Position numbers and translations under genes: made by a program. Below, one piece after another: positions 1 through 24,015 of a DNA stretch of 64,000 nucleotides. Numbering within the stretch: position 1 is the stretch's first letter; each line of letters begins with the position of its first letter. The DNA comes from Geobacter sp. UBA698. Its GTDB lineage: Bacteria > Desulfobacterota > Desulfuromonadia > Geobacterales > Pseudopelobacteraceae. The stretch spans positions 3,713-67,712 of the forward strand of contig DBMM01000028.1 of the NCBI GenBank assembly GCA_002298925.1, written 5' to 3'. The notes under the pieces are model-generated. The model worked only from the letters and a program-made list of their open reading frames with translations, made no database searches and had not been told where the DNA came from.

Positions 1-896
1 TGATCCATCGTCTCCCCTGGACGGCACCCCTCTTTCTGGTCGGATGTGTCTCCATCTCGGCCTTGCCACCTTTCAATGGCTTTGTTTCGGAGTGGCTGAC
101 ATTTCAGGCCTTTCTACTCTCGCCGGCACTGCCTCATCCGATCCTGAAGCTGCTGATCCCGCTCGGGGCTGCGCTGCTGGCACTGACCGGGGCGCTGGCC
201 GCTGCCTGTTTCGTCAAGGTATTCGGGGTGGTTTTTCTGGGACAGTGGCGCGGCCACCAGAAGCCGGACCACATCCATGAAGTCGTTTGGTCCATGCGAA
301 GCGGGATGCTGTTGGCAGCGATCACCTGCCTGCTGCTGGGGATTTTTCCGACCTGGGTCATCAGTTGGCTGGACACGATCCCCGAGCAGCTGTGCGGCGG
401 CCGTATTGCCGAATCCGCCGGCAGGTACGGCTGGATGTGGCTGACGCCGATCGCCCACCAGCGCGCCTCCTATTCCGGTCCGGTTGTATTTATCGGGATA
501 CTGACGGTGGTTGCCGTGACCTGGCTGCTGCTGCACGTGCGCGCAACCCGTGTCAGCAGAGTGCCGCTCTGGGATTGCGGCTTTGCGAAGCTGACCCCCC
601 GCATGCAGTACACGGCCAGTTCCTTCTCCATGCCGATCCGGCGGGTACTCGGTTTCCTGTTTGCGGTGCGCGAACAGGTTGAGATCGTGCCGCACACCAA
701 TCACCCAGCCATGCCGGGGAGCCTCCAGTACCGTTTGCGGGTCCGGGACCGCTTCTGGAACTGGCTCTACGCCCCGCAGGGGGATGCAGCCTACTGGTTG
801 GCGCGTCAGGCCGGCAAGCTGCAGCATGGGCATATCCAGGTCTACCTGCTCTACTCATTCATAACCCTGATCGTGCTGCTGGTGTTTCTAGGATGA
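1..896 (+). CDS. HyfB/HycC/NuoL-like membrane subunit of hydrogenase-related (Ehr-type) complex 1, C-terminal part (5' end lies outside the window)
   Basis: Frame 3 is open from the window edge. The translation IHRLPWTAPLFLVGCVSISALPPFNGFVSEWL aligns with the C-terminal thirds of the full-length paralogs at 7648-9654 and 11201-13246, including the shared WDCGF/WGCGY...MQY(T/S)ASSF tail. Its stop overlaps the next start (ATGA at 893-896). Confidence 0.85.
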   Translation, partial: IHRLPWTAPLFLVGCVSISALPPFNGFVSEWLTFQAFLLSPALPHPILKLLIPLGAALLALTGALAAACFVKVFGVVFLGQWRGHQKPDHIHEVVWSMRSGMLLAAITCLLLGIFPTWVISWLDTIPEQLCGGRIAESAGRYGWMWLTPIAHQRASYSGPVVFIGILTVVAVTWLLLHVRATRVSRVPLWDCGFAKLTPRMQYTASSFSMPIRRVLGFLFAVREQVEIVPHTNHPAMPGSLQYRLRVRDRFWNWLYAPQGDAAYWLARQAGKLQHGHIQVYLLYSFITLIVLLVFLG

Positions 897-1837
897 ACCT
901 CCACCCACTGGCCATAGAGCTGCTCCAATTCGTCCTGCTGCTTGCCCTGGCACCGGCCTTTGCCGGCTGGGTCAAGGTGCTCAAATGCCGCATGCAGGGC
1001 CGTAGTGCAGCTGGAATCATGCAACCATACCGCGATATCCGGCGACTGTTCGGCAAGGATGTCGTGCTAGCCGAAAACGCCTCGTGGCTCTTCCGTTTCA
1101 CCCCCTATCTGACCTTCGGAGTGACAACCATTGTGGCCGGGATTATCCCACTGATCTCAGTTGATCTCCCGCTGTCGGCCACCGCCGACGTGATTGCGTT
1201 GGTGATGCTGTTCGGGATCGTCCGTTTTTTTACCGCACTGGCAGGGATGGATATCGGCACCGCCTTTGGCGGCATGGGCTCCAGCCGCGAGATGACAATC
1301 GCCTCACTGGCTGAACCGGCCATGCTGATGGCGATCTTTACGGTATCGCTGGCCAGCAACTCCACTTCGCTGACTCAGATGGTGACGGTCATGGCGCACG
1401 CCGAGTTTGTGATCCGCCCGTCACTAGCCTTTGCCCTGGCGGCCTTTATCATGATCGCCCTAGCCGAGACCGGCCGTGTCCCGGTTGACAACCCGGCTAC
1501 CCACCTGGAGCTGACCATGATCCATGAGGCCATGATCCTGGAATATTCCGGGCGCCACCTGGCCCTGATCGAATGGGCCGGAATGATGAAACTGACCCTC
1601 TTATTCGCCCTCGGAATCGCCTCCTTCTGTCCCTGGGGAATTTCGGCTGGTGGTGATATCGGCTCGTTGGCGCTGGCGCTCGGTATACTGGCAGTCAAGC
1701 TCATGGTCGGAGCGCTGATCATGGTCTTGATCGAGACCGGTCTGGCCAAGATGCGTATTTTTCGCCTCCCCGAATATCTGGGGAGCGCCTTCCTGTTGGC
1801 GACACTCGGTATGATCGCCTTCTTTATCCTGGAGTAA
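893..1837 (+). CDS. HyfC/HycD/NuoH-like integral membrane subunit (cluster 1)
   Basis: 314-aa polytopic protein. The motif PVDNPATHLELTMIHEAMILEYSG is typical of the NuoH/HycD family and is shared with the paralog at 13291-14199. Translationally coupled to the upstream gene. Confidence 0.85.
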   Translation: MNLHPLAIELLQFVLLLALAPAFAGWVKVLKCRMQGRSAAGIMQPYRDIRRLFGKDVVLAENASWLFRFTPYLTFGVTTIVAGIIPLISVDLPLSATADVIALVMLFGIVRFFTALAGMDIGTAFGGMGSSREMTIASLAEPAMLMAIFTVSLASNSTSLTQMVTVMAHAEFVIRPSLAFALAAFIMIALAETGRVPVDNPATHLELTMIHEAMILEYSGRHLALIEWAGMMKLTLLFALGIASFCPWGISAGGDIGSLALALGILAVKLMVGALIMVLIETGLAKMRIFRLPEYLGSAFLLATLGMIAFFILE

Positions 1838-1841
1838 CGTC

Positions 1842-2507
1842 ATGGCCCACACCCTTGCAGCCCAGATAAACAGCTTGCTGGCAGCCCTGATTCTGCTGTC
1901 CGCCTTTGCCTTGCTGGCCCAGCGCAAGATCATGGGGTTGGTCCATATTTTTGCCTGGCAGGGTTTCTTTCTGGCGCTCAGTACCGCCGTGATCGGTTTC
2001 GCCAGCGGTGAACACCACCTCTACATCTCCTCGCTCCTGACGCTCGGCATGAAGGTTTTTCTGCTCCCCTACATCCTCTACAGCCTGGTACACAAGCTGA
2101 AGATACACCGCGATATCGAGGCGGTCGTCAATATTCCCACCACCATGCTGCTCGGGATAGTGCTGGTGGTCTTCAGCTACCATTTGACCGCACCGATCCG
2201 GGAACTCTCCAACCTGATGACCCGCTCTACCCTGGCGGTAGCGCTGGCCACAGTCATGCTGGGGCTGTTGATGATGGTCACCCGCCGCCATGCCGTGACG
2301 CAGATTCTGGGGTTTCTGGCCATGGAGAACGGCCTGTTCTTTGCCGCCACCAGCGCCACCTACGGCATGCCGATGGTGGTGGAGTTGGGGGTGGCGCTCG
2401 ACCTGTTGATTGCGGCCTTTATCTTCGGCATCTTCTTTTTCCATATCAACACCACCTTTGACAGCCTGGATGTGGATCAGATGGCAAAGCTCAAGGAAAC
2501 GGATTAG
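1842..2507 (+). CDS. HyfE-like (NuoK-related) membrane subunit (cluster 1)
   Basis: 221-aa hydrophobic protein. The segment LGFLAMENGLFF..PMVVELGVALDLL matches the paralog at 14204-14845 and the hydrogenase-4 component E family. 4-nt gap to the upstream gene. Confidence 0.8.
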   Translation: MAHTLAAQINSLLAALILLSAFALLAQRKIMGLVHIFAWQGFFLALSTAVIGFASGEHHLYISSLLTLGMKVFLLPYILYSLVHKLKIHRDIEAVVNIPTTMLLGIVLVVFSYHLTAPIRELSNLMTRSTLAVALATVMLGLLMMVTRRHAVTQILGFLAMENGLFFAATSATYGMPMVVELGVALDLLIAAFIFGIFFFHINTTFDSLDVDQMAKLKETD

Positions 2508-2510
2508 GCC

Positions 2511-3959
2511 ATGATTCTTCTCTCTCTCCTCGGCATATCGATCCTGGTGGCGCTGATCATGGCCTTTATCGGCGACTGGCGTTTTGCACCGGAGGTAAAT
2601 ATAGGCGGTTCCCTGCTGACCTTTATCGTGTCGCTGGTCCTGGCGCTGCAGGTCTACCACGAGGGGGGGAGCATTTCCGGCTCTACCTACTTCTTTGTCG
2701 ATTACCTGAATATCTCCCTGGTCGTACTGACCACCCTGGTATCCACCACGACCGCCGTCTTCAGCCGCCGCTACATGCGGGTCGAACGAGAACATGGCCG
2801 GGTCGGCCACTGGCGGATGCGTTTTTATCACGCCATGTTTCAGCTCTTCATCTTTGCCATGCTGATCGCCCTGGTGACCAATAATTTCGGCGTGCTCTGG
2901 ATCTCGATGGAGCTGGCGACGCTGGCGACCGTCCTGTTGGTGTCACTCTACCGGACCCCGACCGCAATCGAGGCGGCCTGGAAATATTTCATCCTCTGCG
3001 GTGTCGGGATTGCCCAGGCGCTCTTCGGCACGGTACTGCTCTACTTTGCCGCCGAGAGGGTACTGGGGGCCGGCGGCAATGCCCTGCTCTGGACAAACCT
3101 GAGCCGGGTCTGCGCCCAGCTGGATCCGACCGTCATGCGGCTGGCCTTTGTCTTTCTGATGGTCGGCTACGGCACCAAGGCCGGTCTGGTGCCGCTGCAC
3201 AACTGGCTTCCGGATGCGCACAGCGAGGGGCCGACCCCGGTTTCGGCCGTGCTCTCCGGTCTGCTGCTGAATATCGCCCTGTACGCCCTGATTCGCTGCA
3301 AGGCGCTGGTGGATGGTTCCCTCGGGAGCGGGTTTGCCGGCAACATCATGATGGGGTTCGGCCTCTTTTCCCTGCTGACGGCGGCCTTTTCCATGCTGCG
3401 CCAGAAGGATATCAAGCGCCTCTTTGCCTACTCCTCCATCGAACATATGGGAATCGCCACCTTTGCCTTTGGTCTGGGCGGGCCGATCGCCACCTTTGGA
3501 GGGGTGCTCCATATGATCGTCCATAGTCTGGCCAAATCTGCCACCTTTTTCAGCGTCGGCCATGCCGCCCAGATGCACGGGACCCAGGAAATGGCCCATA
3601 TCCGGGGCCTGATTCGGGGGAATCCGGCGGTCGGGTGGGGAATGTTTCTGGGGGTAATGGCGCTGGCCGGCATGCCCCCCTTCGGGATCTTTACCAGCGA
3701 ATTCCTGATCCTGACCGCCACCATGAAGGATGCGCCGTACCTCGCCCCGTTGCTGCTGCTGGGGCTGACGGTGGCTTTTGCCGCCCTGTTCCGCAAGGTA
3801 CAGCCGATGGTGGCGGGGTTGATCCCGTCAGGACAAAAACAGCTCTCAGCCGCCAATATCCCGGTGTTCCTGCATCTGGCGCTGGTGCTGATTCTCGGCA
3901 TTTACCTCCCCGGATTCCTGGCGAACTGGTTTCATCTGGCGGTGGAGATATTGAAGTGA
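2511..3959 (+). CDS. HyfF/NuoN/NuoM-like antiporter-type membrane subunit (cluster 1)
   Basis: 482 aa. Carries the PF00361-type core GTKAGLVPLHNWLPDAHSEGPTPVSAVLSG and KRLFAYSSIEHMG. Paralog at 14850-16286. Confidence 0.85.
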   Translation: MILLSLLGISILVALIMAFIGDWRFAPEVNIGGSLLTFIVSLVLALQVYHEGGSISGSTYFFVDYLNISLVVLTTLVSTTTAVFSRRYMRVEREHGRVGHWRMRFYHAMFQLFIFAMLIALVTNNFGVLWISMELATLATVLLVSLYRTPTAIEAAWKYFILCGVGIAQALFGTVLLYFAAERVLGAGGNALLWTNLSRVCAQLDPTVMRLAFVFLMVGYGTKAGLVPLHNWLPDAHSEGPTPVSAVLSGLLLNIALYALIRCKALVDGSLGSGFAGNIMMGFGLFSLLTAAFSMLRQKDIKRLFAYSSIEHMGIATFAFGLGGPIATFGGVLHMIVHSLAKSATFFSVGHAAQMHGTQEMAHIRGLIRGNPAVGWGMFLGVMALAGMPPFGIFTSEFLILTATMKDAPYLAPLLLLGLTVAFAALFRKVQPMVAGLIPSGQKQLSAANIPVFLHLALVLILGIYLPGFLANWFHLAVEILK

Positions 3960-3968
3960 ACGTAAAGG

Positions 3969-5555
3969 ATGGCCACTGTGAACTCGCTCCGCAATACAAT
4001 CATGACTCACTTCGGCACGACTGCCTCTCTCTGTCTGGGCACCTGTCCCTCCAGCGTCCCGCAGATACTGGTTCCGCGCGAGCAGTTTGAGGATGTCGGC
4101 TGGGTGATGAAGAAGGCCAGCGCACGGCTGGCGGCCGAATGGGGTGTCGATGAAACCCTGCTGGGTAGGCAGTATGCAGTGCTGGCCTGCTTTGCGCAGG
4201 ATGCCGAGTACCTGCTGGTGCGGTGCGATGTCCCGCTTGATGACCCGGCCTTTCCCAGCCTGTCAAAAAAACACCCCCCGGCCTTTCGCTTCGAGCGCCA
4301 GATTTTAAGCCTGCTGGGGTTGACTCCGACCGGTCATGTTCATTCCGACCTGCGCCCCTGGATCAAGCACGAGGATTGGCCGCCTGATGCCTGGCCGCTC
4401 AGAAAGTCCTTTGCCGCCGGTCAACAGATGTCCCGCGTGGAGGGAGAGTACAAGTGGGTCCGGGCTGAAGGGGAGGGGGTCTATGAGATTCCGGTCGGAC
4501 CGGTGCATGCCGGGATCATTGAGCCGGGGCATTTCCGTTTTCAGGCCATGGGCGAGGATATTCTCAATCTGGAGGAACGCTTGGGCTACACCCATAAAGG
4601 GATCGAGAAGCGCTTTGAACAGTTGTCCTGGAAAGACGGGGCACGGCTGGCCGGAAGGGTGTCGGGCGACTCGACCGTTGCTCACGCCCTGACCTACTGC
4701 CGGGCGGTTGAGGCGCTGGTCGAGGGGAATGTGCCTCCCAGGGCGGCCTGGCTGCGGGCGATCATGCTGGAGCGGGAACGGATTGCCAACCATCTTGGAG
4801 ATATCGGTGCCATTGCCAACGATGCCGCCTTTGCCTTCTTTTTTTACCAGTTCATGCTGCTGAAAGAGCATGTTTTACGCGGCAACAAGCGGCTGTTCGG
4901 TCACCGTTACCTGATGGACCGGATCGTGCCGGGCGGGGTTGCCGTTGATCTATCGGCTGATGGTCCCTCCTTGATCGAGGAGGAAATAATCAGCCTGCTG
5001 GCGGAGTTCGAACGGATTGTAAAGATCTACGACCTGAACGCGTCACTGGATGATCGTCTGCGCGGTACCGGGATCCTGCCGGCGGAAACGGCCCGCGAAC
5101 TCGGCACGGTCGGCTTCGTTGCCCGGGCCAGCGGCCAGCCGCTGGACTGCCGCCTGCAAGCGCCCTTTAGCCCCTATGACCGGTTTCCTCCCCGGATGAC
5201 CGTGCTCAACTCGTGCGACGTCCACGCCCGCGCCTGGGTGCGGATCGAAGAGATCCGCGACTCAATCCGCCTGATCCGCGAACTTCTGGCGACACTGCCG
5301 ACCGGAGAAACGTCGGCACCACTGAAGGATGTCCCGCCGGACCAAAGCGCGTTTGCCGTCGTGGAGGGGTGGCGTGGGGAGATCGTCTATTGGCTGCACT
5401 CCGGTCCAGAAGGGGAGATCAACCGCTGCGCGATCCGTGATCCGTCCAGCGTCAACTGGCTGGCGCTCGAACAGGCGATCCACGGCAACATCGTTCCCGA
5501 TTTTCCGCTCTGCAACAAGAGTTTTAACCAGTCCTATTCGGGACATGATTTGTAG
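3969..5555 (+). CDS. NuoC-NuoD fusion / HycE-HyfG-like 'large subunit' lacking the Ni-Fe ligand cysteines (Ehr-type, cluster 1)
   Basis: 528 aa with VGPVHAGIIEPGHFRF and LGYTHKGIEKRF. The position of the RxCGxCxxxH motif reads RVSGDSTVAH (nt 4656-4685). The C-terminus reads DFPLCNKSF instead of DPCxxC (nt 5499-5525). Confidence 0.85.
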   Translation: MATVNSLRNTIMTHFGTTASLCLGTCPSSVPQILVPREQFEDVGWVMKKASARLAAEWGVDETLLGRQYAVLACFAQDAEYLLVRCDVPLDDPAFPSLSKKHPPAFRFERQILSLLGLTPTGHVHSDLRPWIKHEDWPPDAWPLRKSFAAGQQMSRVEGEYKWVRAEGEGVYEIPVGPVHAGIIEPGHFRFQAMGEDILNLEERLGYTHKGIEKRFEQLSWKDGARLAGRVSGDSTVAHALTYCRAVEALVEGNVPPRAAWLRAIMLERERIANHLGDIGAIANDAAFAFFFYQFMLLKEHVLRGNKRLFGHRYLMDRIVPGGVAVDLSADGPSLIEEEIISLLAEFERIVKIYDLNASLDDRLRGTGILPAETARELGTVGFVARASGQPLDCRLQAPFSPYDRFPPRMTVLNSCDVHARAWVRIEEIRDSIRLIRELLATLPTGETSAPLKDVPPDQSAFAVVEGWRGEIVYWLHSGPEGEINRCAIRDPSSVNWLALEQAIHGNIVPDFPLCNKSFNQSYSGHDL

Positions 5556-5678
5556 GGGTGATTGCGAATACGGCATACGGGCAGATGATCAAAAGCAGCG
5601 TCCACAAGCGTCAGAGAGGCTGTTATCAACTTCTGACAGCGCCTACCTTCTTATCCGTGTGCCTATCTCTCAAGATGG

Positions 5679-5706
5679 TTGACAATATAATTATATGTCA
5701 TACAAT
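5679..5706 (+). promoter_or_regulatory. Candidate sigma-70 promoter for the inserted ATPase gene
   Basis: TTGACA (5679-5684), a 16-nt spacer, then TACAAT (5701-5706), in a locally AT-rich stretch. Followed by the inverted repeat GTTACCAT (5708-5715) / ATGGTAAC (5733-5740). Confidence 0.45.
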
Positions 5707-5751
5707 GGTTACCATCATGTAGTAATCATAGTATGGTAACAAAGATTGGGC

Positions 5752-6900
5752 ATGGCAAACCCCTTTTACATAAAGCAGTTACCGCTTGACGCTCCCTTTT
5801 GCAACCGACAGAAAGAGATTGCTGAACTGTGCCGATTGGCTGAATCAAAGAATGATGTTGTCATTCATTCACCCAGGCGTTTCGGTAAAACCTCTCTAGT
5901 CCGCAGAGTGCAGAAGGAACTGGCAGATCGGGGAGCGCTCACAATTTATGCCGACTTTTTCGGAGTTGGTTCAATAGATGATGTTGCGGCCCGAATGGCG
6001 GAAGCGGTCTTTCGTGTGACCCATAAGAAAGAGCCTCTGTGGAAAAGCGCGCTCAAATTTCTGACGACATTTCGTCCGGTGCTCCGTCCTGATGCTGATG
6101 GTGGAGTAGAATTGACCGTTGAGTCCTCATCTGCGGGCAGGACCGGCTTGCCGCTCCTCAATGAAACCATGGAGTCACTGCGGCAATTTATCGACAACAC
6201 AGGCGCATTGGTTCATATCGCGCTGGATGAATTCCAGGAAATAGTGGTTCTGCCGGATGCAGTGAAAATTGAAGCCGCTTTGCGGACTCATATTCAACAA
6301 TATAAGGCATCGCATTTTTTTGTCGGTAGTCGCCGCAGGCTTTTGCTCGGGATGTTTAACGAGCGTCAGAGGCCGTTTTTCCAAAGCGCATTCGATTATC
6401 CACTTAAGTCGCTGCCTCGGGAAGAGTTGGCGGAATTCCTGTCAAAGCAGTTTACCGATAGCGGCATTATCTGCTCAAAAGAGATGGCAATCCATCTGGC
6501 GGAACTCGTCGATTGCTATCCCTACTATGCCCAGAAATTTGCCCATCATGTCTATGACCTGGCCGGTTCCGAAGTTACCTGGGCTGAAATAAAAATGGCG
6601 ATGAGAAGTCTGATCTTTTCCGAAGGGACAGCGTTCGAATACGCCATTCAAGGTTTGGCGCCACAGCAGCGTCTATTGCTTCGTGCCATTGCCAGGGAAC
6701 CGGCAAAACAGATCATGGCGACAAAATTCATGCGCACGCACAATCTCGGATCGGTCAACGCCGTACGGAATTCGCTCAAACAGCTGGAACTGCTGGACTA
6801 CATTGAAAAAGACTCTGATAACGTCTGGCATGTTATTGACCCGGTTTTTACATGGTGGTTGACGGGGAGAGTCAGCGAGGAAGCGATGGACGGTATGTGA
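5752..6900 (+). CDS. AAA-type ATP-binding protein ('archaeal ATPase'/ATPase_2-like with a C-terminal winged-helix-like region)
   Basis: Walker A SPRRFGKTSL and Walker B-like HIALDEFQE. Overall look of orphan PF01637-type ATPases. Visibly lower GC than the flanking genes. TTG at 5746 is an alternative start. Confidence 0.7.
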   Translation: MANPFYIKQLPLDAPFCNRQKEIAELCRLAESKNDVVIHSPRRFGKTSLVRRVQKELADRGALTIYADFFGVGSIDDVAARMAEAVFRVTHKKEPLWKSALKFLTTFRPVLRPDADGGVELTVESSSAGRTGLPLLNETMESLRQFIDNTGALVHIALDEFQEIVVLPDAVKIEAALRTHIQQYKASHFFVGSRRRLLLGMFNERQRPFFQSAFDYPLKSLPREELAEFLSKQFTDSGIICSKEMAIHLAELVDCYPYYAQKFAHHVYDLAGSEVTWAEIKMAMRSLIFSEGTAFEYAIQGLAPQQRLLLRAIAREPAKQIMATKFMRTHNLGSVNAVRNSLKQLELLDYIEKDSDNVWHVIDPVFTWWLTGRVSEEAMDGM

Positions 6901-7096: not shown

Positions 7097-7615
7097 ATGC
7101 TGAGAATACTGCACCAGATATTTCGAACCGGGGTGGTGACCGAGCCGTTGCCGGAACAGGTGGAAGCGGAGCTGGCCCACGTGGGCGGCCGGCTCGAAGA
7201 GGCTATCAGGCGGCGCTTCCACCGCAGCCTCGTGATCCGCGAGGTGGATGCCGGCTCGTGCAACGGCTGCGAGCTGGAGATCATCGCCATGAACAACCCG
7301 ATCTACAACTGTGAACGTTATGGCATCCAGTTTACGGCGTCGCCCCGCTTTGCCGACTTGCTGCTCGTCACCGGGCCGGTATCGATCAATATGGAGATTG
7401 CCCTCAAACGCACCTACGACGCCACTCCCACCCCCAAACTGGTCGTAGCGGTTGGTGATTGTGGCTGCCATGGCGGGATCTTCGGCGAAAGCTATGCCTC
7501 ACTCGGGAGTGTAAGTAACGTCATACCGGTTGATGCCAGCATTCCCGGCTGTCCGCCGACACCGTTCGACCTGCTGAATGGCATCCTCCGACTGATTGAC
7601 GGGCATCAGCCTTGA
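7097..7615 (+). CDS. NuoB/HycG/HyfI-like 'small subunit' with [4Fe-4S] ligands (cluster 1)
   Basis: 172 aa. Cys motifs GSCNGCELE, GDCGCHGG and PGCPPTP are typical of the NuoB/hydrogenase small-subunit N2-type cluster. RBS AGGAGGG lies about 10 nt upstream. Confidence 0.85.
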   Translation: MLRILHQIFRTGVVTEPLPEQVEAELAHVGGRLEEAIRRRFHRSLVIREVDAGSCNGCELEIIAMNNPIYNCERYGIQFTASPRFADLLLVTGPVSINMEIALKRTYDATPTPKLVVAVGDCGCHGGIFGESYASLGSVSNVIPVDASIPGCPPTPFDLLNGILRLIDGHQP

Positions 7616-7647: not shown

Positions 7648-9654
7648 TTACTTTGAACCGACGATTATCAGAAGAATCAAGGTGAGTAAGGTGTACAGGA
7701 TGTAGAGGTGAAGTTGACCGTGCTGTAGTCTTCGTATGGGCAGGAATTTCTCATAGATGCGGGCGAGGAGGGGGAGATAGATCCTTTCAAGGACGGCTTC
7801 GGGCACATGGCTTTCAAAATGGGGTGTGGCAGGGAATGAACCGATGATGTGCGGTGCGTGACGCTCGGGTCGCAGAACACCCGCAAAGAGTTTTACCAGC
7901 ATGGCGGCAAAGGATGATGCACTGTATTGCATCTTGCTGGTCGGAGCAAGATAGCCGCATCCCCAGGTGGCGGATGTTGTGACGGCCGAGCGGTGAAGAC
8001 GACGGCGATACAACAACCAACTCAGCAGAGAGAGCATGAGAAGAGTAACTGCCAGGATTGTTATCCACCCTAGAGGCGCTACAGTACCTAATGTCGGTAC
8101 GTCAGCCGATGGGGGCAACCAGCTGGTAACTGCCGATTCGAGTAACGGTGCAACTGCTACAGGGAAACAGCCGATAACAAGGCAGACGAGTGACAGAATC
8201 ATCATGGGCAGCAGCATTGTCCACTTTGCCTCATGGATGGATGTCGGGAGAGGCGAGCGAGGGACTCCGAGAAAGACAATACCGACAACCTTGACGAAAC
8301 AAGCGACCGCCAGACCGCCGATCAGGGCCAGGGCCGGAGCGGCGAGGGCGGTTCCGATGGCTCCTGCACCACTGCCGGAAATAGTTCCGTTGAAGAATCC
8401 CAAGTAGATCAGGAATTCACTGACAAAACCGTTGAGTGGCGGCAGTCCGCAAATCGCCACGGCGCCGATAATGAACGATACGGTGGTCCAGGGCATGGGA
8501 CGAAGCAGTCCTCCCATGCGATCGATCTCCCGGGTTGCTGCCGAATGGATGGCAGAACCGGCGCCAAGAAAAAGAAGCGCCTTGAAGGTGGCATGGTTCA
8601 GCACGTGCAGGAGCGCGCCGGCCAATCCCAGCAGAATAAGGATTGATGAGCCGGTAGCCGCACCAATCAATGCCGTGCCGATCCCCATGGTGATAATACC
8701 GATGTTCTCTATACTGTGATAGGCCAACAGCCGCTTGAGGTCATGCTGACCCAGGGCAAAGAGCACTCCGACGATCCCCGACACCATGCCGAGGACCATC
8801 ATGACTATGCCCCACCAGAGCGGTATCCCCGTAAAAAACGATAAGGTGCGCACCAGACCGTAGATGCCGATCTTGAGGATGACACCGGACATGATGGCGG
8901 ATACGTGACTGGGGGCATTGGCGTGAGCAGACGGAAGCCAGATGTGAAGCGGCATGAGCCCGGCCTTGAAGCCGAACCCGAACAGGGCAACCAGAAATAT
9001 AACGGTGGCGAGCGGCATCGTTGCGGTCAGCGCGCCGGCATCAGGGAATATGAAGCTGCCGGAGATGTTCTTCAACAATGCGAACAGGGCAAACAGGGCC
9101 AGAGTTCCCGTATGGGTGCAGATCATGTAGAGAGTACCGGCGTCACGAACGTCGGGCATGTGGTCTTCTGTGGTGAGAACGAAATAGGCGGCAAGCGCCA
9201 TTATCTCCCAGGCCAGCAGAAACAGGCCGGCCGAGCGCGACATGATGACGAAGAGCATGGATGACACCAGCAGTCCGAAAAAAAAAGTCAATTTTCGGAC
9301 TGTGCGGGGATTGTTCGGGGCAGGCCAGTAATCCAGGGCATAGATGCTGCAACAGGCAGACACGATCAGTATCGGCAGGGCAAAGAAGGCGGTGAGCGGG
9401 TCTAATCCGCATTCAACCGGGCCGAAAGGGAACGGCCAGGCCAGCTGATAGGTTACGTTTCGACGATGGAGCAGCGTCATGACGGCACCGACAAGCCCTC
9501 CCGCAGCCGCGACAAGCATTGTCAGTGTCGCGATGCGCTGGCCAAGGGTCGGGTTCAGAAAGCGCACCAGGAGTGGGGCACCTGAAAGAGCAGACAATAG
9601 TGCCGCTCCTATGAGGAGCATGGCAGGCAGGTTTGCCGTCAGGTCAACGGTCAT
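7648..9654 (-). CDS. Orphan HyfB/HycC/NuoL-like antiporter-type membrane subunit
   Basis: 668 aa with GFKAGLMPLHIWLPSAHANAPSHVSAIMSG, KRLLAYHSIENIG and a WGCGY..KMQYSASSF tail. Closely resembles 11201-13246. Its start overlaps the stop of the upstream EIIA gene (ATGA at 9651-9654). Confidence 0.85.
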   Translation of the reverse strand: MTVDLTANLPAMLLIGAALLSALSGAPLLVRFLNPTLGQRIATLTMLVAAAGGLVGAVMTLLHRRNVTYQLAWPFPFGPVECGLDPLTAFFALPILIVSACCSIYALDYWPAPNNPRTVRKLTFFFGLLVSSMLFVIMSRSAGLFLLAWEIMALAAYFVLTTEDHMPDVRDAGTLYMICTHTGTLALFALFALLKNISGSFIFPDAGALTATMPLATVIFLVALFGFGFKAGLMPLHIWLPSAHANAPSHVSAIMSGVILKIGIYGLVRTLSFFTGIPLWWGIVMMVLGMVSGIVGVLFALGQHDLKRLLAYHSIENIGIITMGIGTALIGAATGSSILILLGLAGALLHVLNHATFKALLFLGAGSAIHSAATREIDRMGGLLRPMPWTTVSFIIGAVAICGLPPLNGFVSEFLIYLGFFNGTISGSGAGAIGTALAAPALALIGGLAVACFVKVVGIVFLGVPRSPLPTSIHEAKWTMLLPMMILSLVCLVIGCFPVAVAPLLESAVTSWLPPSADVPTLGTVAPLGWITILAVTLLMLSLLSWLLYRRRLHRSAVTTSATWGCGYLAPTSKMQYSASSFAAMLVKLFAGVLRPERHAPHIIGSFPATPHFESHVPEAVLERIYLPLLARIYEKFLPIRRLQHGQLHLYILYTLLTLILLIIVGSK

Positions 9655-10337
9655 GAGACGCCTTTGCCGATATCATTTTCAATTTCCAGAATGGCAGTCA
9701 TGATCGCCTCGGAGTTGCATTGCTTGCCGAGAATGTCACGCAAGCGTTGATCACGCAGACAGTAAGCCAGTTTTGAGAGCAGATGCAGATGCATCCTGAT
9801 GGTCGGCGAGATGATAGTGAACAGTATCTGTACCGGCTTGCCGTCTAGCGCCCCGAAGTCAACCGGCTCCGAGAGGAAGCAGAGGGCGATCTTCGGAACG
9901 GGCAACTGCACCAGGATCGGATTGCGCACATGTGGAATGGCGATACCATCGCCGACTGCAGTTGTTCCCATGGCTTCACGTGCCAGGAGCACCTGCAGGA
10001 TGAATTCGGGATCGATCTCCGGCGGCAGGTCCAGGATCGCCACGGTATTTCGCAGTACCGTTTCCTTGTCGTCACCAGGAAAACCACAATGGATGCCTCC
10101 GGCATGCAACGCCTGGCTCAAGGTCGGCAAGGGACAATTATCCGCATCAGGCATCTTGTACAGGGCCGGATTAACCTTTATTCCGCGCTCCGTTGCCCAT
10201 TCCAACAGGTCCACCGGGTTGATCCGGTAGTCTCCGTGGATAGACTCTGCTGGCAGATTGTCTTTTTTAATCCAGCGCACAACGGTTTTTTCATCAACAT
10301 TCAGAGCCAGTGCGGCCTCGGACGGTTCAAGCAGCAT
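9651..10337 (-). CDS. DNA-binding (excisionase/MerR-type HTH) protein fused to a PTS EIIA type-2 (PtsN-like) domain
   Basis: N-terminal LNVDEKTVVRWIKKDNLPA HTH. C-terminal EIIA-2 domain with the phospho-His motif GDGIAIPHVRNP. Confidence 0.8.
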   Translation of the reverse strand: MLLEPSEAALALNVDEKTVVRWIKKDNLPAESIHGDYRINPVDLLEWATERGIKVNPALYKMPDADNCPLPTLSQALHAGGIHCGFPGDDKETVLRNTVAILDLPPEIDPEFILQVLLAREAMGTTAVGDGIAIPHVRNPILVQLPVPKIALCFLSEPVDFGALDGKPVQILFTIISPTIRMHLHLLSKLAYCLRDQRLRDILGKQCNSEAIMTAILEIENDIGKGVS

Positions 10338-10400: not shown

Positions 10401-10766
10401 TCAGGGCTTAGGGTATCCCGGTGTTTCTTCGATGCCGAGTTGCAGACAGAGGGTCTTATCCACCTGACTCATGAGTGATTTGTTGATAAAGCCGAGTCGC
10501 TCACCAATCACGTTGGTCTTGTCGATGGTAATGAGGATATGGGAACTGATCTTGGCATCTCTTCCCAAGCCATCATCCGATGCCGGCAAGAATGTCTCGA
10601 AATCATAGATCTTTTCCAGACGGGTAAAACTCAGGGGAATAATGGTCACGACCGGAGAATACTCGTTGCTGATATTATTGCTCACCACCAGGCAGGGGCA
10701 AACCTCCGGTTCCTGCACATCTGCATGGGGCAGATTGACCGCATAGATACCACCGCGCTTAAACAT
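10401..10766 (-). CDS. MazF/PemK-family type II toxin (mRNA interferase)
   Basis: 121 aa. GGIYAVNL....CPCLVVSNNISNEYSPVVTIIPLS is characteristic of the PemK/MazF fold. Overlaps the upstream antitoxin ORF by 8 nt. Lies in a low-GC patch. Confidence 0.8.
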   Translation of the reverse strand: MFKRGGIYAVNLPHADVQEPEVCPCLVVSNNISNEYSPVVTIIPLSFTRLEKIYDFETFLPASDDGLGRDAKISSHILITIDKTNVIGERLGFINKSLMSQVDKTLCLQLGIEETPGYPKP

Positions 10767-10995
10767 CCCGTTTCTCCGTTACCGTTGATTCGAATTTTTT
10801 GAGCACCTCTTTCGTTTCCTCCGCAGTCGAGGTATACCCTTCAATCAGCCCTTTGTACGCCTTCTTTTTCACTTCTTCAAGTTTTTCCCTGGCAGCTTCC
10901 TCAAGGAACTGGCTCAATCCCCGCTGCCCATACAGTGCCTTGATATCGTCCACGATCGGGGTTGGCAATGTGATATTCAATCGCGTGTTCGGCAT
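10759..10995 (-). CDS. Putative antitoxin (ribbon-helix-helix-like) of the MazF-type toxin
   Basis: 78 aa. The N-terminal TRLNITLPTPIVDDIKAL looks like an RHH beta-strand plus helix. Sits immediately upstream of the toxin and overlaps it. Confidence 0.6.
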   Translation of the reverse strand: MPNTRLNITLPTPIVDDIKALYGQRGLSQFLEEAAREKLEEVKKKAYKGLIEGYTSTAEETKEVLKKFESTVTEKRDV

Positions 10996-11200: not shown

Positions 11201-13246
11201 ATGCCGACCTGCAATCATATCTTACCTCGATATGAGCGAAAGGGTAGGTGTGAGGCATTCGTGTTTTTTTCCGTTGATCCGACAATATGCCTTCTGGCCG
11301 CAGCAACACTCATGGCGTTCTCAGGAGTACCAGGTCTTGTGATGAACCGTCCTGTCTGGGGGCAGCGGATTGCCGCTGTTTTCGTTGTTGCGGCATCCAT
11401 TGTCGGTGAGTTCGCCGTCATTTCTCTCCTTGGCGGCTCCCGGGGAGCTACCTTCCAGATTGACTGGCCACTGCCGTTCGGGCAGGCTCTTATGTCCGTC
11501 GATCTCCTCTCAACGATCTTCCTCCTGCCTCTCTTCCTGGTTTGCGGATGTGTCTCGGTATATTCAATCGCCTACTGGCCGGCCAGGGAACAGACCAGCG
11601 CCGGAAAACTTACGCTGTTTCTCGGGTTCTTTGCCGCAGCGATGGTCATGGTGGTCTTGGCCCGCCACGGCGTATTGTTTCTCATAGCCTGGGAGGTCAT
11701 GGCCCTGTCGGCCTATTTCCTGCTGACGGCGGAGCAGCAGAGTTCCGAGGTGCAGCGAGTCGGGACGATCTATCTCATTGCCACCCACACCGGCACCATG
11801 GCGCTGTTTGCAATGTTTTCGCTACTGCGCGGTGCAATCGGCACGTTCCAGTTTCCCGCATCACATTCTCTATCCCAGGCGGTGCCGGTTGCCTCGGTCA
11901 TTATCATAACTGCCCTGATCGGCTTTGGCGGCAAGGCCGGTCTTATGCCTTTGCACTTCTGGCTCCCCGGGGCCCATGCCAACGCCCCCAGCCATGTTTC
12001 AGCCATGATGTCCGGTTTGATGCTGAAGATGGGGGTCTATGGCATTCTGCGGACCATGTCGTTTTTTGACGCTCTGCCTGTCTGGCTGGGGTGGCTTATC
12101 CTCCTTTTGGGCACCTGGTCGGCGATAAACGGCATTGCCCTGGCAGCCGGCCAGCGTGACCTGAAACGACTCCTGGCCTGCAGCAGTATCGAGAATGTCG
12201 GTATTATCTTTATCGGCATCGGGCTGGCCGTTGTCGGCCTGCAGCTGCACGCTCCCTACCTCATCGTATGTGGTCTCTTTGGAGCCTTTATCCATATCAT
12301 CAATCATGGTCTGTTCAAATCGCTCCTCTTTCTGGGGAGCGGGGTGCTGATCCATGCTGCCGGAACCCGTGAAATAGACCGCATGGGCGGCCTGGCCCGG
12401 CGCATGCCGATCACGTCGCCGCTCTTCCTGATCGGCTCCCTTGCCATCTGCGGGCTGCCGCCGCTCAATGGTTTTGTGGGCGAACTGTTTCTCTACGTCG
12501 GGGCCATTACCGATGGCATCATCGCACCTTTGCCGCTGGCGGCCCTAGTGGCACCAGTGTTGGCGTTGGTCGGCGGATTGGCTGTCATTACCTTCGTCAA
12601 AATCTATGGGATCATCTTTCTTGGCGCTCCACGCTCTGTTGCAGCCGCTCACGGCCATGAAGCAACCAGGGCGATGACCGCTCCGATGGTTCTGCTGGCG
12701 CTCGGCTGTCTGGTTGCAGGCCTGGCGCCTGTGCTGCTGGTGCGATTGGTTACACCGGCGGTCGCTTTTTATGGTAACCTGGCCGCACCTGAAATTGCCC
12801 TGGTTACCGATCAGGTACCTCTTGTGCCACTCACGTTTGCCAATTGCCTGCTCATCATTCTTGTTCTGGTGATCGGAGCTGCATACCTGTTGCGGCTGCG
12901 CAGGTTGCCCCGCTCCCTGGGGGCCACCTGGGGATGCGGCTATCCTGAACCAACAGCCAGAATGCAATATACCGGCACATCGTTCAGTGAGATGGTGGTG
13001 AATCTGTTAGGGGCAATCGTTGCCCCCAACCGCCGGAAGCCCATACTTGTTACAGCCATTCCTCCTGCTGACGCACGTTTTCACTACACGGTGACTGAAA
13101 CAGTGCTTGACCGGATTCTGACACCGCTCTTTCAAGGGGTCGGCCTGGCCTTTTCCTATCTCAGAAGGGTGCAGCATGGCCAGCTTCATATCTATGTGCT
13201 GTATATCTTTGCCACGCTGTGCGTTCTGATGGCCTGGACGCATTGA
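11201..13246 (+). CDS. HyfB/HycC/NuoL-like membrane subunit (cluster 2)
   Basis: GGKAGLMPLHFWLPGAHANAPSHVSAMMSG, KRLLACSSIENVG and a WGCGYPEPTARMQYTGTSF tail. The in-frame GTG at 11261, preceded by GAGG, aligns better with the paralog N-terminus and may be the true start. Confidence 0.85.
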   Translation: MPTCNHILPRYERKGRCEAFVFFSVDPTICLLAAATLMAFSGVPGLVMNRPVWGQRIAAVFVVAASIVGEFAVISLLGGSRGATFQIDWPLPFGQALMSVDLLSTIFLLPLFLVCGCVSVYSIAYWPAREQTSAGKLTLFLGFFAAAMVMVVLARHGVLFLIAWEVMALSAYFLLTAEQQSSEVQRVGTIYLIATHTGTMALFAMFSLLRGAIGTFQFPASHSLSQAVPVASVIIITALIGFGGKAGLMPLHFWLPGAHANAPSHVSAMMSGLMLKMGVYGILRTMSFFDALPVWLGWLILLLGTWSAINGIALAAGQRDLKRLLACSSIENVGIIFIGIGLAVVGLQLHAPYLIVCGLFGAFIHIINHGLFKSLLFLGSGVLIHAAGTREIDRMGGLARRMPITSPLFLIGSLAICGLPPLNGFVGELFLYVGAITDGIIAPLPLAALVAPVLALVGGLAVITFVKIYGIIFLGAPRSVAAAHGHEATRAMTAPMVLLALGCLVAGLAPVLLVRLVTPAVAFYGNLAAPEIALVTDQVPLVPLTFANCLLIILVLVIGAAYLLRLRRLPRSLGATWGCGYPEPTARMQYTGTSFSEMVVNLLGAIVAPNRRKPILVTAIPPADARFHYTVTETVLDRILTPLFQGVGLAFSYLRRVQHGQLHIYVLYIFATLCVLMAWTH

Positions 13247-13290
13247 AGTATTGTTATGATCGTTTTCATCATCTGTGAGGATGACCTTTT

Positions 13291-14199
13291 ATGACTGACA
13301 TCATCATCCATTGTGCAGTGGCGCTGCTCTTCCCACCCCTTCTGCTGGGGGTAATCGGCAAGACCAAGGCGGCATTTGCCGGACGGGTCGGGGCGCCATA
13401 TTTCCAACCCTATTACGACCTGATCAAACTCTTCCGCAAAGGGTCGGTCTTCAGCGAGACCACCACCTGGGTCTTTCGAGCCGGTCCCGTGGTGACGCTG
13501 TCGGCAACGCTTATCGCCTGCCTGCTGATACCGCTGGGGCGCCATGCAGCGCCCATTTCTTTCAGCGGTGATCTGATTCTGTTTGCGTACCTGTTCGGGT
13601 TGTCACGCTTCTTCACTACCATCGCCGCCCTTGATACCGGCTCAAGCTTTGAAGGTATGGGCGCGGCCCGCGAGGTGACTTTTTCGTGCCTTGCTGAACC
13701 GACTCTATTTTTTACCCTGATCACGCTGGCGCGGATGAGTAAGTCCATCACCCTTTCGACCATTCTTACCCATCCCACACCCGCGACCTGGTTTGCTGCC
13801 GGAGCCAGCATGTTGCTGCTGGTAGGGGCACTCTTCATCATCCTCTTGGCGGAAAACTGCCGCATCCCCTTTGATGACCCCAACACACACCTGGAATTGA
13901 CCATGATCCACGAGGTAATGGTTCTGGATCACAGCGGACCCGCCTTTGGGATCATTCTCTATGGTGCAGCCTTGAAACTCTTTGTTCTCGGGGCGGTTTT
14001 CGTCAATGTCGCCCTGCCCATCGCCACTGGAAACGCTCTGGCGGACTGGGCAATCTTCATTGTCGCCATACTTGCCCTGGCGGTGACAATCGGCATTGTT
14101 GAGTCGGTCATGGCCAGATTGAGATTGGTGCGTATCCCGCAACTCCTGGTCGGGGCCACCATCCTGTCAGCCTTTGCCATGATGCTGGTTTTGAGGTAA
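13291..14199 (+). CDS. HyfC/HycD/NuoH-like integral membrane subunit (cluster 2)
   Basis: 302 aa. PFDDPNTHLELTMIHEVMVLDHSG parallels the paralog at 893-1837. Confidence 0.85.
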   Translation: MTDIIIHCAVALLFPPLLLGVIGKTKAAFAGRVGAPYFQPYYDLIKLFRKGSVFSETTTWVFRAGPVVTLSATLIACLLIPLGRHAAPISFSGDLILFAYLFGLSRFFTTIAALDTGSSFEGMGAAREVTFSCLAEPTLFFTLITLARMSKSITLSTILTHPTPATWFAAGASMLLLVGALFIILLAENCRIPFDDPNTHLELTMIHEVMVLDHSGPAFGIILYGAALKLFVLGAVFVNVALPIATGNALADWAIFIVAILALAVTIGIVESVMARLRLVRIPQLLVGATILSAFAMMLVLR

Positions 14200-14203
14200 C
14201 CCT

Positions 14204-14845
14204 ATGAGTCTATTAGCTGATCAACTGCTGGTACTGGTGATGCTGATCAATCTGGTCATGCTCGGGACGAGCCGACTGATCTTTTCCATCCGTGCCGTCG
14301 CAGTCCAAGGGGTCATACTCGGTATTTTGCCCGGATTGATTCACCCTTTTTCCTTTCATCTGGCCGGCATAACTGCCGGTATCATCCTGGCCAAAGGGAT
14401 TGTCATCCCGTATTTTATCAGTAATGCCGTCCGCAAGGCCCAGATCAGACGCGAAGTGGAGCCATTCATCGGCTATGTGCCGACCCTGCTTCTCGGCGCC
14501 GTATTCACAGCACTTTCATTCGCTTTTGCCGAAAAACTGCCGCTCGCGCCCGAACACAAGGACCTTCTGTTCGTTCCGGCCTCCATCGCTACCCTGTTGA
14601 CCGGCTTTTTGCTCCTCACAACACGGCGCAAGGCTATTTCCCAGGTTATTGGTTATCTGGTGATGGAAAACGGGATTTTCGTGTTCGGCCTGTTGTTGAC
14701 CGAGGCCATGCCGGTCATGGTGGAGGCTGGTGCACTGCTCGATCTTCTGGTGGGGATATTTGTCATGGGAATTGTCATCAACCATATCAGCCGGGAATTT
14801 TCATCCATCGATACATCCCGCCTGCAAACCCTCAAGGAGGAGTAG
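14204..14845 (+). CDS. HyfE-like (NuoK-related) membrane subunit (cluster 2)
   Basis: 213 aa. IGYLVMENGIFVFG..MPVMVEAGALLDLL parallels 1842-2507. Confidence 0.8.
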   Translation: MSLLADQLLVLVMLINLVMLGTSRLIFSIRAVAVQGVILGILPGLIHPFSFHLAGITAGIILAKGIVIPYFISNAVRKAQIRREVEPFIGYVPTLLLGAVFTALSFAFAEKLPLAPEHKDLLFVPASIATLLTGFLLLTTRRKAISQVIGYLVMENGIFVFGLLLTEAMPVMVEAGALLDLLVGIFVMGIVINHISREFSSIDTSRLQTLKEE

Positions 14846-14849
14846 CTGC

Positions 14850-17803: not shown

Positions 17804-17858
17804 TGTCACACCGATCAGGTTTTCAGACAGTACAAGGGTGTGCCGAAGGAGTTGCATC

Positions 17859-18596
17859 ATGATCAGAGCAATCGTTTCCCGCATCAAACAGGGGCATCGT
17901 ACCATGCCCTATCCCGCAGCACCATTGCAGATGCCGGAACGGTTTCGAGGCTACCCTGTTGCAGCATCGCTTGCAGATTCGGCCGATCGATCACCTGAAT
18001 GTCCCTATGGCGCCTTTTCCGCTGCGGAAGGTGGATGCCTTGATATGGGGAAATGCCTCTTCTGCGCCGAGTGTCCGGCAGGAAACATAGAATTCACCAC
18101 GGATCATCGACTTGCAGCCACAAAAAGAGAACATCTTCTGGTAACGCCGGGAGCTCCACGGCAGTTTGCACAGGCGCTTTCTAACGATCTGCTACGCATA
18201 TTGGGTCGCTCGCTCAAATTCCGTGAGGTCAGTGCAGGCGGTTGTAATGCTTGTGAGGCAGATACCAACGTGCTGTCAACCATAGGCTGGGATCTGGGAC
18301 GGTTTGGCATTCAATTTGTGGCGTCGCCACGCCACGCTGATGGGCTCTGGGTAACCGGTCCAGTCACCAATAACATGACCAAGGCTCTGCTCACTACATA
18401 TGATGCGATTCCTGAACCGAAGATCGTTGTTGCCTGTGGCGCCTGTGCCATCAACGGCGGACCGTACATTGATTCGCCCCAAGTTTGCAACGGCGCAGAT
18501 GGTCTCATTCCGGTAGATCTCTACATCCCCGGCTGTCCGCCACACCCCGGGACCATACTCGACGGTCTTTTACGAATTATTGATAAAATCAGATGA
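17859..18596 (+). CDS. NuoB/HycG-like 'small subunit' with an N-terminal single-cluster ferredoxin-like extension (cluster 2)
   Basis: ATG at 17859. The N-terminal part has ECPYGAF...GKCLFCAECPAG (CxxCxxCP plus a distal CP). The C-terminal part has GGCNACEAD, ACGACAINGG and PGCPPHP (NuoB-type). Confidence 0.8.
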   Translation: MIRAIVSRIKQGHRTMPYPAAPLQMPERFRGYPVAASLADSADRSPECPYGAFSAAEGGCLDMGKCLFCAECPAGNIEFTTDHRLAATKREHLLVTPGAPRQFAQALSNDLLRILGRSLKFREVSAGGCNACEADTNVLSTIGWDLGRFGIQFVASPRHADGLWVTGPVTNNMTKALLTTYDAIPEPKIVVACGACAINGGPYIDSPQVCNGADGLIPVDLYIPGCPPHPGTILDGLLRIIDKIR

Positions 18597-23923: not shown

Positions 23924-24015
23924 GTGTTTACCGACATGTGCCATCCGTGGCACAATACACCAACACGAAATAAGTGAACTACCTATATCAGCAGGTATTC
24001 TGCTGCAGGGGCAAA

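Follow-up and report, generated by a model that had tools for sequence, protein, structure and literature searches.

We analyzed a stretch of 64,000 nucleotides from contig DBMM01000028.1 of Geobacter sp. UBA698, hereafter called the window, with a focus on the large subunit of the hydrogenase-like gene cluster at its start. The open reading frame (ORF) at positions 3969 to 5555 almost certainly encodes EhrL, the large subunit of an Ehr/Hyq-type complex that lacks a [NiFe] site. Judged by sequence comparison, the complex would overall be best explained, at a probability of roughly 0.6, as an iron-sulfur (FeS)-dependent oxidoreductase that couples redox chemistry to ion translocation and acts on a substrate other than H2. 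Ehr denotes Ech- or energy-converting-hydrogenase-related; three papers, which cite Coppi 2005 and Marreiros 2013, describe the class as complexes resembling group-4 hydrogenases with a large subunit devoid of Ni-Fe ligands and with a function given as unknown (PMC6349859, PMC10284858, PMC4758237). The cluster in the window is a new, slightly rearranged member of this already published and functionally unsolved family.

A hydrogenase-like large subunit without nickel-iron ligands

The gene and its two former ligand motifs are located as follows.
3969 to 5555, plus strand: EhrL (type 1), a NuoC-NuoD fusion, large subunit with Cys-free ligand columns (ORF call, Pfam, HMMER, AlphaFold2/Foldseek)
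4656 to 4685, plus strand: former L1 motif R230-H239, RVSGDSTVAH, with ligand columns S232 and S235 (alignment to HycE, MbhL and Nqo4)
5526 to 5552, plus strand: true former L2 motif N520-L528, NQSYSGHDL, with ligand columns S522 and G525 (alignment to HycE and the sister hydrogenases described below)

The ORF is intact and encodes 528 amino acids; homologues in databases start at a GTG nine bases later (position 3978), which gives a length of 525 amino acids. Pfam recognizes a NuoC-type Complex1_30kDa domain (residues 34-151) followed by a NuoD-type Complex1_49kDa domain (1.4e-37), and the match to NiFeSe_Hases, the family of nickel-dependent hydrogenases, is below threshold. Across all PDB sequences, the best match is HycE of E. 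coli (7z0s_E, E=1.2e-58), followed by Nqo4 of T. thermophilus and MbhL of P. furiosus. The AlphaFold2 model also superposes best on HycE 7z0s_E (template modelling score 0.80, Foldseek). These results bear out an earlier interpretation made from the letters of the DNA, the sequence-only reading, which had described an intact, HycE-like NuoC-NuoD fusion carrying the motifs VGPVHAGIIEPGHFRF and LGYTHKGIEKRF; both motifs are found in the EhrL translation, and the nucleotide coordinates given in that reading are exact. The AlphaFold2 model was built on a 35-sequence alignment and has a mean predicted local distance difference test (pLDDT) score of 76.6. Any spatial clustering of D234, D285 and D491, residues discussed below, is proposed by homology only.

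We searched 1.84 billion cluster representatives exhaustively and obtained 7173 relatives, of which 114 full-length representatives were aligned with HycE, MbhL and Nqo4 using MAFFT; 85 of them are Ehr-type and 16 are sister hydrogenases with all four ligand Cys. The L1 motif RVSGDSTVAH matches RVCGICGFAH of HycE and RMCGICSFSH of MbhL column for column (HMMER), with both Cys replaced by Ser, as the sequence-only reading had stated; the Nqo4 counterpart is RMDYLHSFAH. For L2, that reading had chosen DFPLCNKSF (nucleotides 5499-5525) and had concluded that at most one ligand Cys is left. This register proved to be wrong. Both HMMER and MAFFT align DFPLCNKSF with DAPLIIGSL of HycE, the Cys standing opposite an isoleucine, and DPCYSC of HycE aligns with NQSYSG of EhrL, the stop codon following directly after NQSYSGHDL. 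Besides RxCGxCxxxH at L1, the 16 sister hydrogenases carry DFPL(I/V)NKSF and, downstream of it, ELCYxCxDR. DFPLxNKSF is thus a shared upstream motif, which fixes the register of L2. This alignment also reproduces H38, Y87 and D139 of Nqo4 at their textbook numbers, which validates the register as a whole.

When scored against HycE, MbhL and Nqo4, EhrL has no Cys in any L1 or L2 column. The number of surviving Ni-Fe ligand Cys is 0/4 (S232, S235, S522, G525), compared to C, C, C, C in HycE and the 16 sisters, and neither of the catalytic group-4 motifs, RxCGxCxxxH and [DE][PL]CxxCxx[HR], is present. Since all four are replaced, EhrL cannot hold a canonical [NiFe] centre. The earlier conclusion that a binuclear Ni-Fe site cannot be built from these residues is therefore strengthened by the corrected register.

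Conservation and selection across the family

The substitutions are not peculiar to the window. Among the 85 Ehr-type representatives, the four ligand columns read SSSG, STSG, ATSG, SESG, SNSG or similar, and the pattern carried by this group is S/A-G-D-S/T...S-Y-x-G. The Cys-containing sisters, 4f-like group-4 [NiFe] hydrogenases found for instance in Desulfotomaculum and Planctomycetota (P0131, P0137), are 35-41% identical to EhrL. They have the NuoC-D fusion in common with Ehr, and the beta1-beta2 loop IIEPGHFRF, DFPL(I/V)NKSF, H239, R469, Y523 and D527 are likewise kept in both groups, but the sisters retain RxCGxCxxxH and ELCYxCxDR where Ehr has a different set of residues. Position 234 is D in 98% of the Ehr-type representatives (n=85) and V or A in the sisters; position 285 is D in 92% compared to G. 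Towards the C-terminus, Ehr types carry D-P instead of S-A at positions 491-492, N instead of E at 520, S (93%) instead of C at 522, G (98%) instead of C at 525, and L instead of R at 528. Within the beta1-beta2 loop, E185 aligns with E21 of MbhL, and E185, H239 and the arginine of the APRG motif, R469, are kept in at least 90% of the Ehr-type representatives. No Cys column among these representatives is conserved above 49%, so that Ehr-type EhrL has no alternative thiolate site.

In a neighbour-joining tree, the Ehr types group with the Cys-containing sisters in a single clade that excludes HycE and MbhL; the internal branches of the tree are short and carry no bootstrap values, and a single loss of the Cys is not separable in it from several losses. 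A scan of 185,579 species genomes confirmed Ehr loci in at least 598 of them. Our locus comparisons use the best 80 of these at least 598 loci, plus four close relatives (L081, L083, L085, L086). The best 80 include Nitrospirota and Beta-, Gamma- and Alphaproteobacteria, with Gallionella, Thiobacillus, Acidithiobacillus, Mariprofundus and Methylobacter, as well as Bradyrhizobium, Azospirillum, Mesorhizobium, Acidobacteriota, Methylomirabilota and Chloroflexota. With few exceptions, those with enough flanking sequence show the gene order A-B-C-D-L-S. In five loci from Methylomirabilota, Rokubacteria, Chloroflexia and Binatia (L043, L046, L057, L067, L075), S lies ahead of EhrA, giving S-A-B-C-D-L. 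The closest relatives of the window cluster are found in metagenome-assembled genomes of Desulfuromonadaceae and Geobacter (73-87% identity), in which the order is HTH_17/EIIA regulator-A2-A1-B-C-D-L-S; EhrL homologues of Geobacter sp. are 71-73% identical. By its sequence patterns, Ehr is a coherent family and not the product of sporadic decay.

EhrL is under strong purifying selection and is not a decaying relic. The ratio of nonsynonymous to synonymous substitution rates (dN/dS) is 0.12 and 0.17 when compared with the relatives L081 and L083, and the four other subunits tested range from 0.05 to 0.13. The EhrL values contradict the view of PMC13194489 that the system is already non-functional and under relaxed selection. 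A dead hydrogenase operon that drifts, as assumed there for G. sulfurreducens KN400, would be in line with the loss of all catalytic ligands, with the ATPase cassette that interrupts the L-S junction in the window and with the rearranged A-2/regulator module (see below). We find this explanation barely credible in view of the low dN/dS of all five genes tested (0.05-0.17), the intact ORFs, the fixation of the same substitutions in different phyla and at least 598 species genomes, and the detection of Ehr proteins by proteomics (PMC7894505).

Subunits of cluster 1 and their genomic context

The remaining subunits of cluster 1 and its regulator were assigned as follows.
1 to 896, plus strand: EhrA-1, HyfB/NuoL-like antiporter subunit, C-terminal 277+ amino acids (NCBIfam hydrogenase-4 subunit B, profile positions 398-666)
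893 to 1837, plus strand: EhrB, NuoH/HycD-like membrane subunit (Pfam NADHdh, 1.4e-33)
1842 to 2507, plus strand: EhrC, HyfE-like membrane subunit with a NuoK-like C-terminal half (NCBIfam hydrogenase 4 membrane subunit, 7.8e-29)
2511 to 3959, plus strand: EhrD, HyfF/NuoM/N-like antiporter subunit (NCBIfam hydrogenase 4 subunit F, 746 bits, above cut-off)
7097 to 7615, plus strand: EhrS (type 1), NuoB-like small subunit (Pfam Oxidored_q6, 2.5e-30)
7648 to 9654, minus strand: second HyfB/NuoL-like subunit, EhrA-2-like (NCBIfam hydrogenase 4 subunit B, 576 bits, below the 667-bit cut-off)
9651 to 10337, minus strand: regulator with HTH_17 and PTS EIIA(Ntr)-like domains (Pfam HTH_17, PTS_EIIA_2)

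This subunit composition indicates that Ehr/Hyq is a membrane machine of six to seven subunits, with a predicted membrane arm and a NuoB/C/D core like those of formate hydrogenlyase and complex I. EhrA-1 is cut by the window start and only its C-terminal part is present; window positions 1-3955 are collinear with positions 5874-9828 of the relative L085, in which the EhrA-1 gene encodes 680 amino acids. The nearest solved chain to EhrB is HycD (7z0s_D, 1.8e-47), followed by MbhM (1.9e-17), with no complex I NuoH among its PDB matches at E<=1e-8. EhrC has a weak Oxidored_q2 match at residues 131-218. The EhrD residues E134 in transmembrane helix 5 (TM5), K223 in TM7 and E397 in TM12 are kept in 43-44 of 44 homologues. 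EhrS carries C55, C58, C122 and C152, which would ligate the proximal [4Fe-4S] cluster and are conserved in 40-41 of 41 aligned homologues; this cluster is the only predicted redox cofactor of the complex.

All ORFs of cluster 1 are intact (ORF call). The genes for A and B overlap by 4 nucleotides (893/896), and the following gaps through to EhrL measure 4, 3 and 9 nucleotides. Of the translationally coupled operon of the sequence-only reading, the genes A-B-C-D-L are tightly packed, but EhrS does not directly follow EhrL, an ATPase gene lying between them. In the 80 related loci and the four close relatives, S comes immediately after L, save for those with S ahead of A. The HTH_17-EIIA(Ntr) protein is probably the operon regulator; its gene comes first in the ehr operons of L081, L083, L085 and L086, and Nitrospirae L005 has an upstream homologue.

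Clustering of the ORFs that flank the 80 loci revealed no further co-conserved gene beyond the six subunits, and neither formate dehydrogenase (FDH) nor hyp genes were conserved there; some apparent flanking families are artefacts of antisense ORFs in high-GC DNA. Neither the window operon nor those of the 84 related loci contain NuoI, NuoA or an NADH- or ferredoxin-input module, and the window operon has no ferredoxin subunit of the HycB, HycF or NuoI type. Among the ORFs scanned in the 64-kb window, we found no hyp maturation or endopeptidase genes and no gene for MrpE, MrpF or MrpG; NuoB-, NuoC- and NuoD-like subunits are present instead.

The dominance of three antiporter-like subunits and the lack of an electron-input module at every locus examined would also be compatible with redox-independent ion homeostasis, in which an Mrp-like cation/proton antiporter is covered by EhrL/EhrS as a structural or regulatory lid, with the FeS cluster as a sensor. 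EIIA(Ntr) controls K+ transport in E. coli, and the operon regulator has an EIIA(Ntr) domain. A role in pH homeostasis has furthermore been suggested for ehrABCDLS of Methylacidiphilum (PMC6688271). We nevertheless regard a mere antiporter as unlikely: the FeS Cys of EhrS are kept almost without exception, and the pocket residues of EhrL are among the best conserved of the family, which would be unexpected for a lid. To our knowledge, bona fide Mrp systems need no cap resembling EhrL/EhrS.

Comparison with known systems

In G. sulfurreducens, GSU0739-45 are annotated as ehrA-1, A-2, B, C, D, L and S (PMC7894505). Compared through its published description only, this seven-gene cluster (GSU0739-0745) has the subunit set of the window cluster, a Cys-free large and a Cys-complete small subunit, and the gene order of L081, L083, L085 and L086; the window differs from it by an ATPase gene between L and S, an inverted A-2/regulator module and a cluster of a second subtype that follows. 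The subunit set, the gene order of the close relatives, the four non-Cys ligand columns and the published class definition agree in assigning the window cluster to Ehr, as the sequence-only reading had done. Its statement that the class has no known biochemical function also holds, since the papers found do not describe a purified enzyme.

The Hyq "endo-hydrogenase" of Azorhizobium caulinodans and other diazotrophs (PMC2650096, PMC3357923) consists of six subunits, HyqBCEFGI, of which HyqG (504 amino acids) is devoid of both CxxC motifs and HyqI carries the same four Cys as EhrS (PMC3357923). Ehr has the same six structural subunits. Alphaproteobacterial members of our data set (P0129 cluster, L054, L058) are 504 amino acids long, are 48% identical to EhrL of cluster 1 (EhrL1), and share SGD...DFPLCNKSFNCSYSGxDL with the EhrL pattern SGD...DFPLCNKSFNxSYSGxDL; their Cys lie 13 and 7 residues from the C-terminus, as do C491 and C497 of HyqG. 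The identical length, the matching C-terminal Cys, the shared motifs and the 48% identity show that Ehr and Hyq are one family. There are differences: Hyq operons have a sigma-54-type activator, HyqR, instead of the HTH-EIIA regulator of the window and its relatives; two further Cys, C258 and one at the Q521 position, are conserved in Hyq, and neither occurs in EhrL of the window; Hyq has one EhrA-type subunit and the Ehr of the window two; and an H2 phenotype has been reported only for Hyq of Azorhizobium.

E. coli formate hydrogenlyase (HycE/HycD/HycG, PDB 7Z0S) provides the best match to both EhrL and EhrB and has the same core architecture. It differs by its [NiFe] site, the ferredoxin-like subunits HycB/HycF and FdhF, none of which are found in Ehr, and by having one antiporter-like subunit instead of three. 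Ehr could accordingly be the membrane partner of an FDH encoded elsewhere, an "FDH-Ehr" descended from formate hydrogenlyase, as has been proposed for Margulisbacteria and Saganbacteria (PMC6349859). The higher abundance of Ehr subunits in formate-grown G. sulfurreducens (PMC7894505) points in the same direction as the kinship with HycE and HycD. However, no gene for FDH or a HycB/HycF-like protein is present in the window or conserved beside the 80 loci, and the FDH of G. sulfurreducens is periplasmic (PMC7894505) and thus separated by the membrane from the side where it would have to dock. A link to formate seems rather improbable to us; it is a special case of the redox-coupled ion translocator and differs from it in the electron donor.

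With the quinone-binding (Q) module of complex I, Ehr shares the lack of Ni-Fe ligands and an N2-type cluster in the NuoB homologue. The equivalent of Asp139 of Nqo4, the partner of His38, is present in EhrL as D285, and so is the RxPS motif after beta-strand 490. In contrast to complex I, the beta1-beta2 loop of Ehr is of the hydrogenase type, and NuoI, NuoA and NuoEFG are missing.

A putative redox-coupled ion translocator

We propose that an electron-exchanging partner docks at the site normally taken by HycF/NuoI and exchanges electrons with the EhrS cluster. This partner would be encoded elsewhere, because no such subunit is present in any operon examined. A substrate other than H+/H2 would be held and turned over in the remodelled, acid-rich and strongly constrained EhrL pocket, which is predicted to be lined by the Ehr-specific D234, D285, D491 and S232/S522 and to keep the hydrogenase-type E185, H239 and R469. 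Changes of charge in the pocket may reach the antiporter-like subunits, which keep TM5 Glu, TM7 Lys and TM12 Glu, by way of EhrB and the beta1-beta2 loop (GPVHAGIIEPGHFRF), which is conserved. The complex may also run in the direction of consuming proton-motive force to make a low-potential reductant. All subunits of Ehr have been detected by proteomics in G. sulfurreducens, at higher levels with formate (PMC7894505).

Membrane quinone, menaquinone in this lineage, rather than H+/H2 is in our view the likeliest substrate of Ehr, an assignment to which we nevertheless give clearly less than even odds. It is favoured by D285, an Asp of the complex I/Mbh type gained relative to the Gly of the sisters, and by the hosts, which among the best 80 of at least 598 loci are mainly respiring, quinone-containing aerobes or microaerophiles. 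The authors of the Hyq study inferred a quinone site as well (PMC3357923). The case for quinone is weakened by the absence of Tyr87 and His38, the quinone ligands of Nqo4, which correspond to G233 and I184 in EhrL, and by the HycD-like character of EhrB.

Several observations weigh against a redox-coupled translocator acting on a substrate other than H2. The closest similarity of EhrB is to HycD and MbhM, both from quinone-independent hydrogenases, and its distance to NuoH of complex I is far greater; the quinone ligands of Nqo4 are replaced as just described. The central TM8 Lys of antiporter-like subunits (K265 of E. coli NuoM) is replaced by Asn in EhrD (N254), as it is in 40 of 44 homologues. 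No electron-input, ferredoxin-like subunit lies in or near any operon examined. The EhrL model is unreliable at the pocket and at the interface with EhrS/EhrB (pLDDT <50 for residues 126-210 and 494-528), and the papers found contain no biochemical assay of any Ehr/Hyq member. The main caveat, however, is the H2 genetics of Azorhizobium, the one experimental claim against "not a hydrogenase": deletion analysis in A. caulinodans credits Hyq with H2 uptake and with nifK-independent H2 evolution at low O2 (PMC3357923).

These data could mean that Ehr/Hyq is a non-canonical hydrogenase, an H2:quinone oxidoreductase whose Cys-free pocket handles H2, perhaps by means of another metal on Asp/Ser/Glu. 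Deleting hyq in a hupSL background abolishes about 80% of the H2 evolved under microaerobic conditions, and the effect is also seen in a nifK mutant (PMC3357923), and earlier data report H2 uptake (PMC2650096, PMC2930871). HyqG, which is devoid of both CxxC motifs, belongs to the EhrL family, as indicated by the 48% identity of the P0129-type members, and the second-sphere residues E185, R469 and H239 are widely kept. On the other hand, all four metal-ligating Cys are missing, no other Cys column is well conserved, and no hyp or endopeptidase genes are among the ORFs scanned in the window. We know of no Cys-free H2 catalyst of this fold. The Hyq evidence is whole-cell genetics with an operon-scale deletion that includes the regulator, leaves about 20% of H2 evolution and comprises no enzyme assay, and its authors call the catalytic site speculative (PMC3357923). 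In G. sulfurreducens, Hyb alone is needed for H2 uptake, as cited in PMC7894505. We consider a hydrogenase of this kind quite improbable. The earlier verdict "probably not a hydrogenase" is upheld by the ligand count and qualified by the published claim for HyqBCEFGI, which is not enzymological. Still a little more speculative is the idea that the Cys-free pocket (the near-invariant D234, D285, D491, S232/S522 and E185) forms a new catalytic site for another metal or substrate, at which the whole family would turn over H2, as the Azorhizobium genetics asserts, or another small molecule in a reaction coupled to ion translocation.

Rearrangements and a second Ehr cluster in the window

Downstream of EhrL, the window departs from its relatives by an ATPase cassette at the L-S junction and an inverted module, and a second Ehr cluster follows.
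5627 to 6900, plus strand: ATPase_2/AAA_16 gene cassette between EhrL and EhrS, with the ORF at 5746-6900, 384 amino acids (Pfam)
11201 to 18596, plus strand: second Ehr cluster, type 2 (Pfam matches; also for the six genes below)
11201 to 13246, plus strand: A
13291 to 14199, plus strand: B
14204 to 14845, plus strand: C
14850 to 16286, plus strand: D
16283 to 17803, plus strand: L2
17856 to 18596, plus strand: S2

The ATPase gene has its own promoter-like site at 5679-5706 (11/12 positions matched). The segment 5627-6866 is 91% identical to positions 13254-14487 of L085, where it lies 1.1 kb downstream of EhrS; the cassette is absent from the EhrL-EhrS position in the 84 related loci (80 loci plus the four close relatives). 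Either the cassette was relocated or the arrangement is an artefact of the assembly. The ATPase is not identifiable as a defence gene, as it gave only insignificant matches in PADLOC and none in NCBIfam. Downstream of cluster 1, the module of the EhrA-2-like gene and the regulator is inverted; in the relatives L081, L083, L085 and L086, it precedes A-1 and has the same orientation. Its nucleotide identity to the counterparts in these relatives is about 68%, compared to 84-89% elsewhere in the cluster. Between the regulator and cluster 2, two small ORFs on the minus strand (10401-10995) match a PemK-type toxin/antitoxin pair of L081 (14115-14717, 79% nucleotide identity).

The large subunit of the type 2 cluster has A, T, S and G in the ligand columns, the pattern AGDT...SYCG and the C-terminus DFPLCNKSFNLSYCGFDL, which ends in SYCGFDL. 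It is 34% identical to EhrL1 and falls into a separate "ATSG" clade in the neighbour-joining tree. A tandem pairing of the two Ehr subtypes also occurs in Nitrospirota (L003), Methylibium (L060), Aquabacterium (L076) and Desulfuromonadaceae (L081, L085), and this recurrence across lineages suggests that the subtypes are complementary rather than redundant. EhrS2 has an N-terminal extension of about 135 amino acids (17856-18260) containing ECP...C-x5-CLFCAECP. The extension has no match to Pfam Fer4 even at E<=5; by its Cys pattern, it looks like a degenerate single-cluster ferredoxin or a remnant of NuoI/HycF.

A scan for sigma-54 promoters (TGGCAC-N5-TTGC, one mismatch) gave six matches where seven were expected, none of them upstream of the clusters, and hence does not support sigma-54 control here. 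Three neighbouring genes were noted in addition. The gene that comes immediately after cluster 2 (18829-19656, minus strand) codes for a response regulator containing an MshEN domain; weak tblastn matches to it of receiver-domain length (28-36% identity) lie no more than 10 kb away from several unrelated Ehr loci (L002, L029, L035, L040, L045, L048, L080). Positions 23974-26277 encode a sigma-54 activator of 767 amino acids whose N-terminal sensor consists of Fer4, the C-terminal domain of the [FeFe]-hydrogenase large subunit and a putative FeS domain. Upstream of it (21392-23866) lies a gene for a protein of 824 amino acids without a Pfam match, the N-terminus of which resembles a lipoprotein signal by eye.

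Significance

Among the families of complex-I-like machines to which no reaction has been assigned, Ehr/Hyq is one of the largest, with iron and sulfur oxidisers, nitrifiers, methanotrophs, diazotrophs and relatives of Geobacter among its hosts. The window alone does not settle the substrate of Ehr. It supplies the correct ligand register, evidence of strong purifying selection against the view of Ehr as a relic, a list of Ehr-specific pocket residues (D234, D285, D491, N520, S522, G525, L528) and a genome in which both Ehr subtypes lie side by side. As the family stands evolutionarily between H2-evolving hydrogenases and complex I, knowing what it acts on would be relevant to how proton reduction gave way to quinone chemistry, and to how lithotrophs and diazotrophs balance their low-potential electrons.

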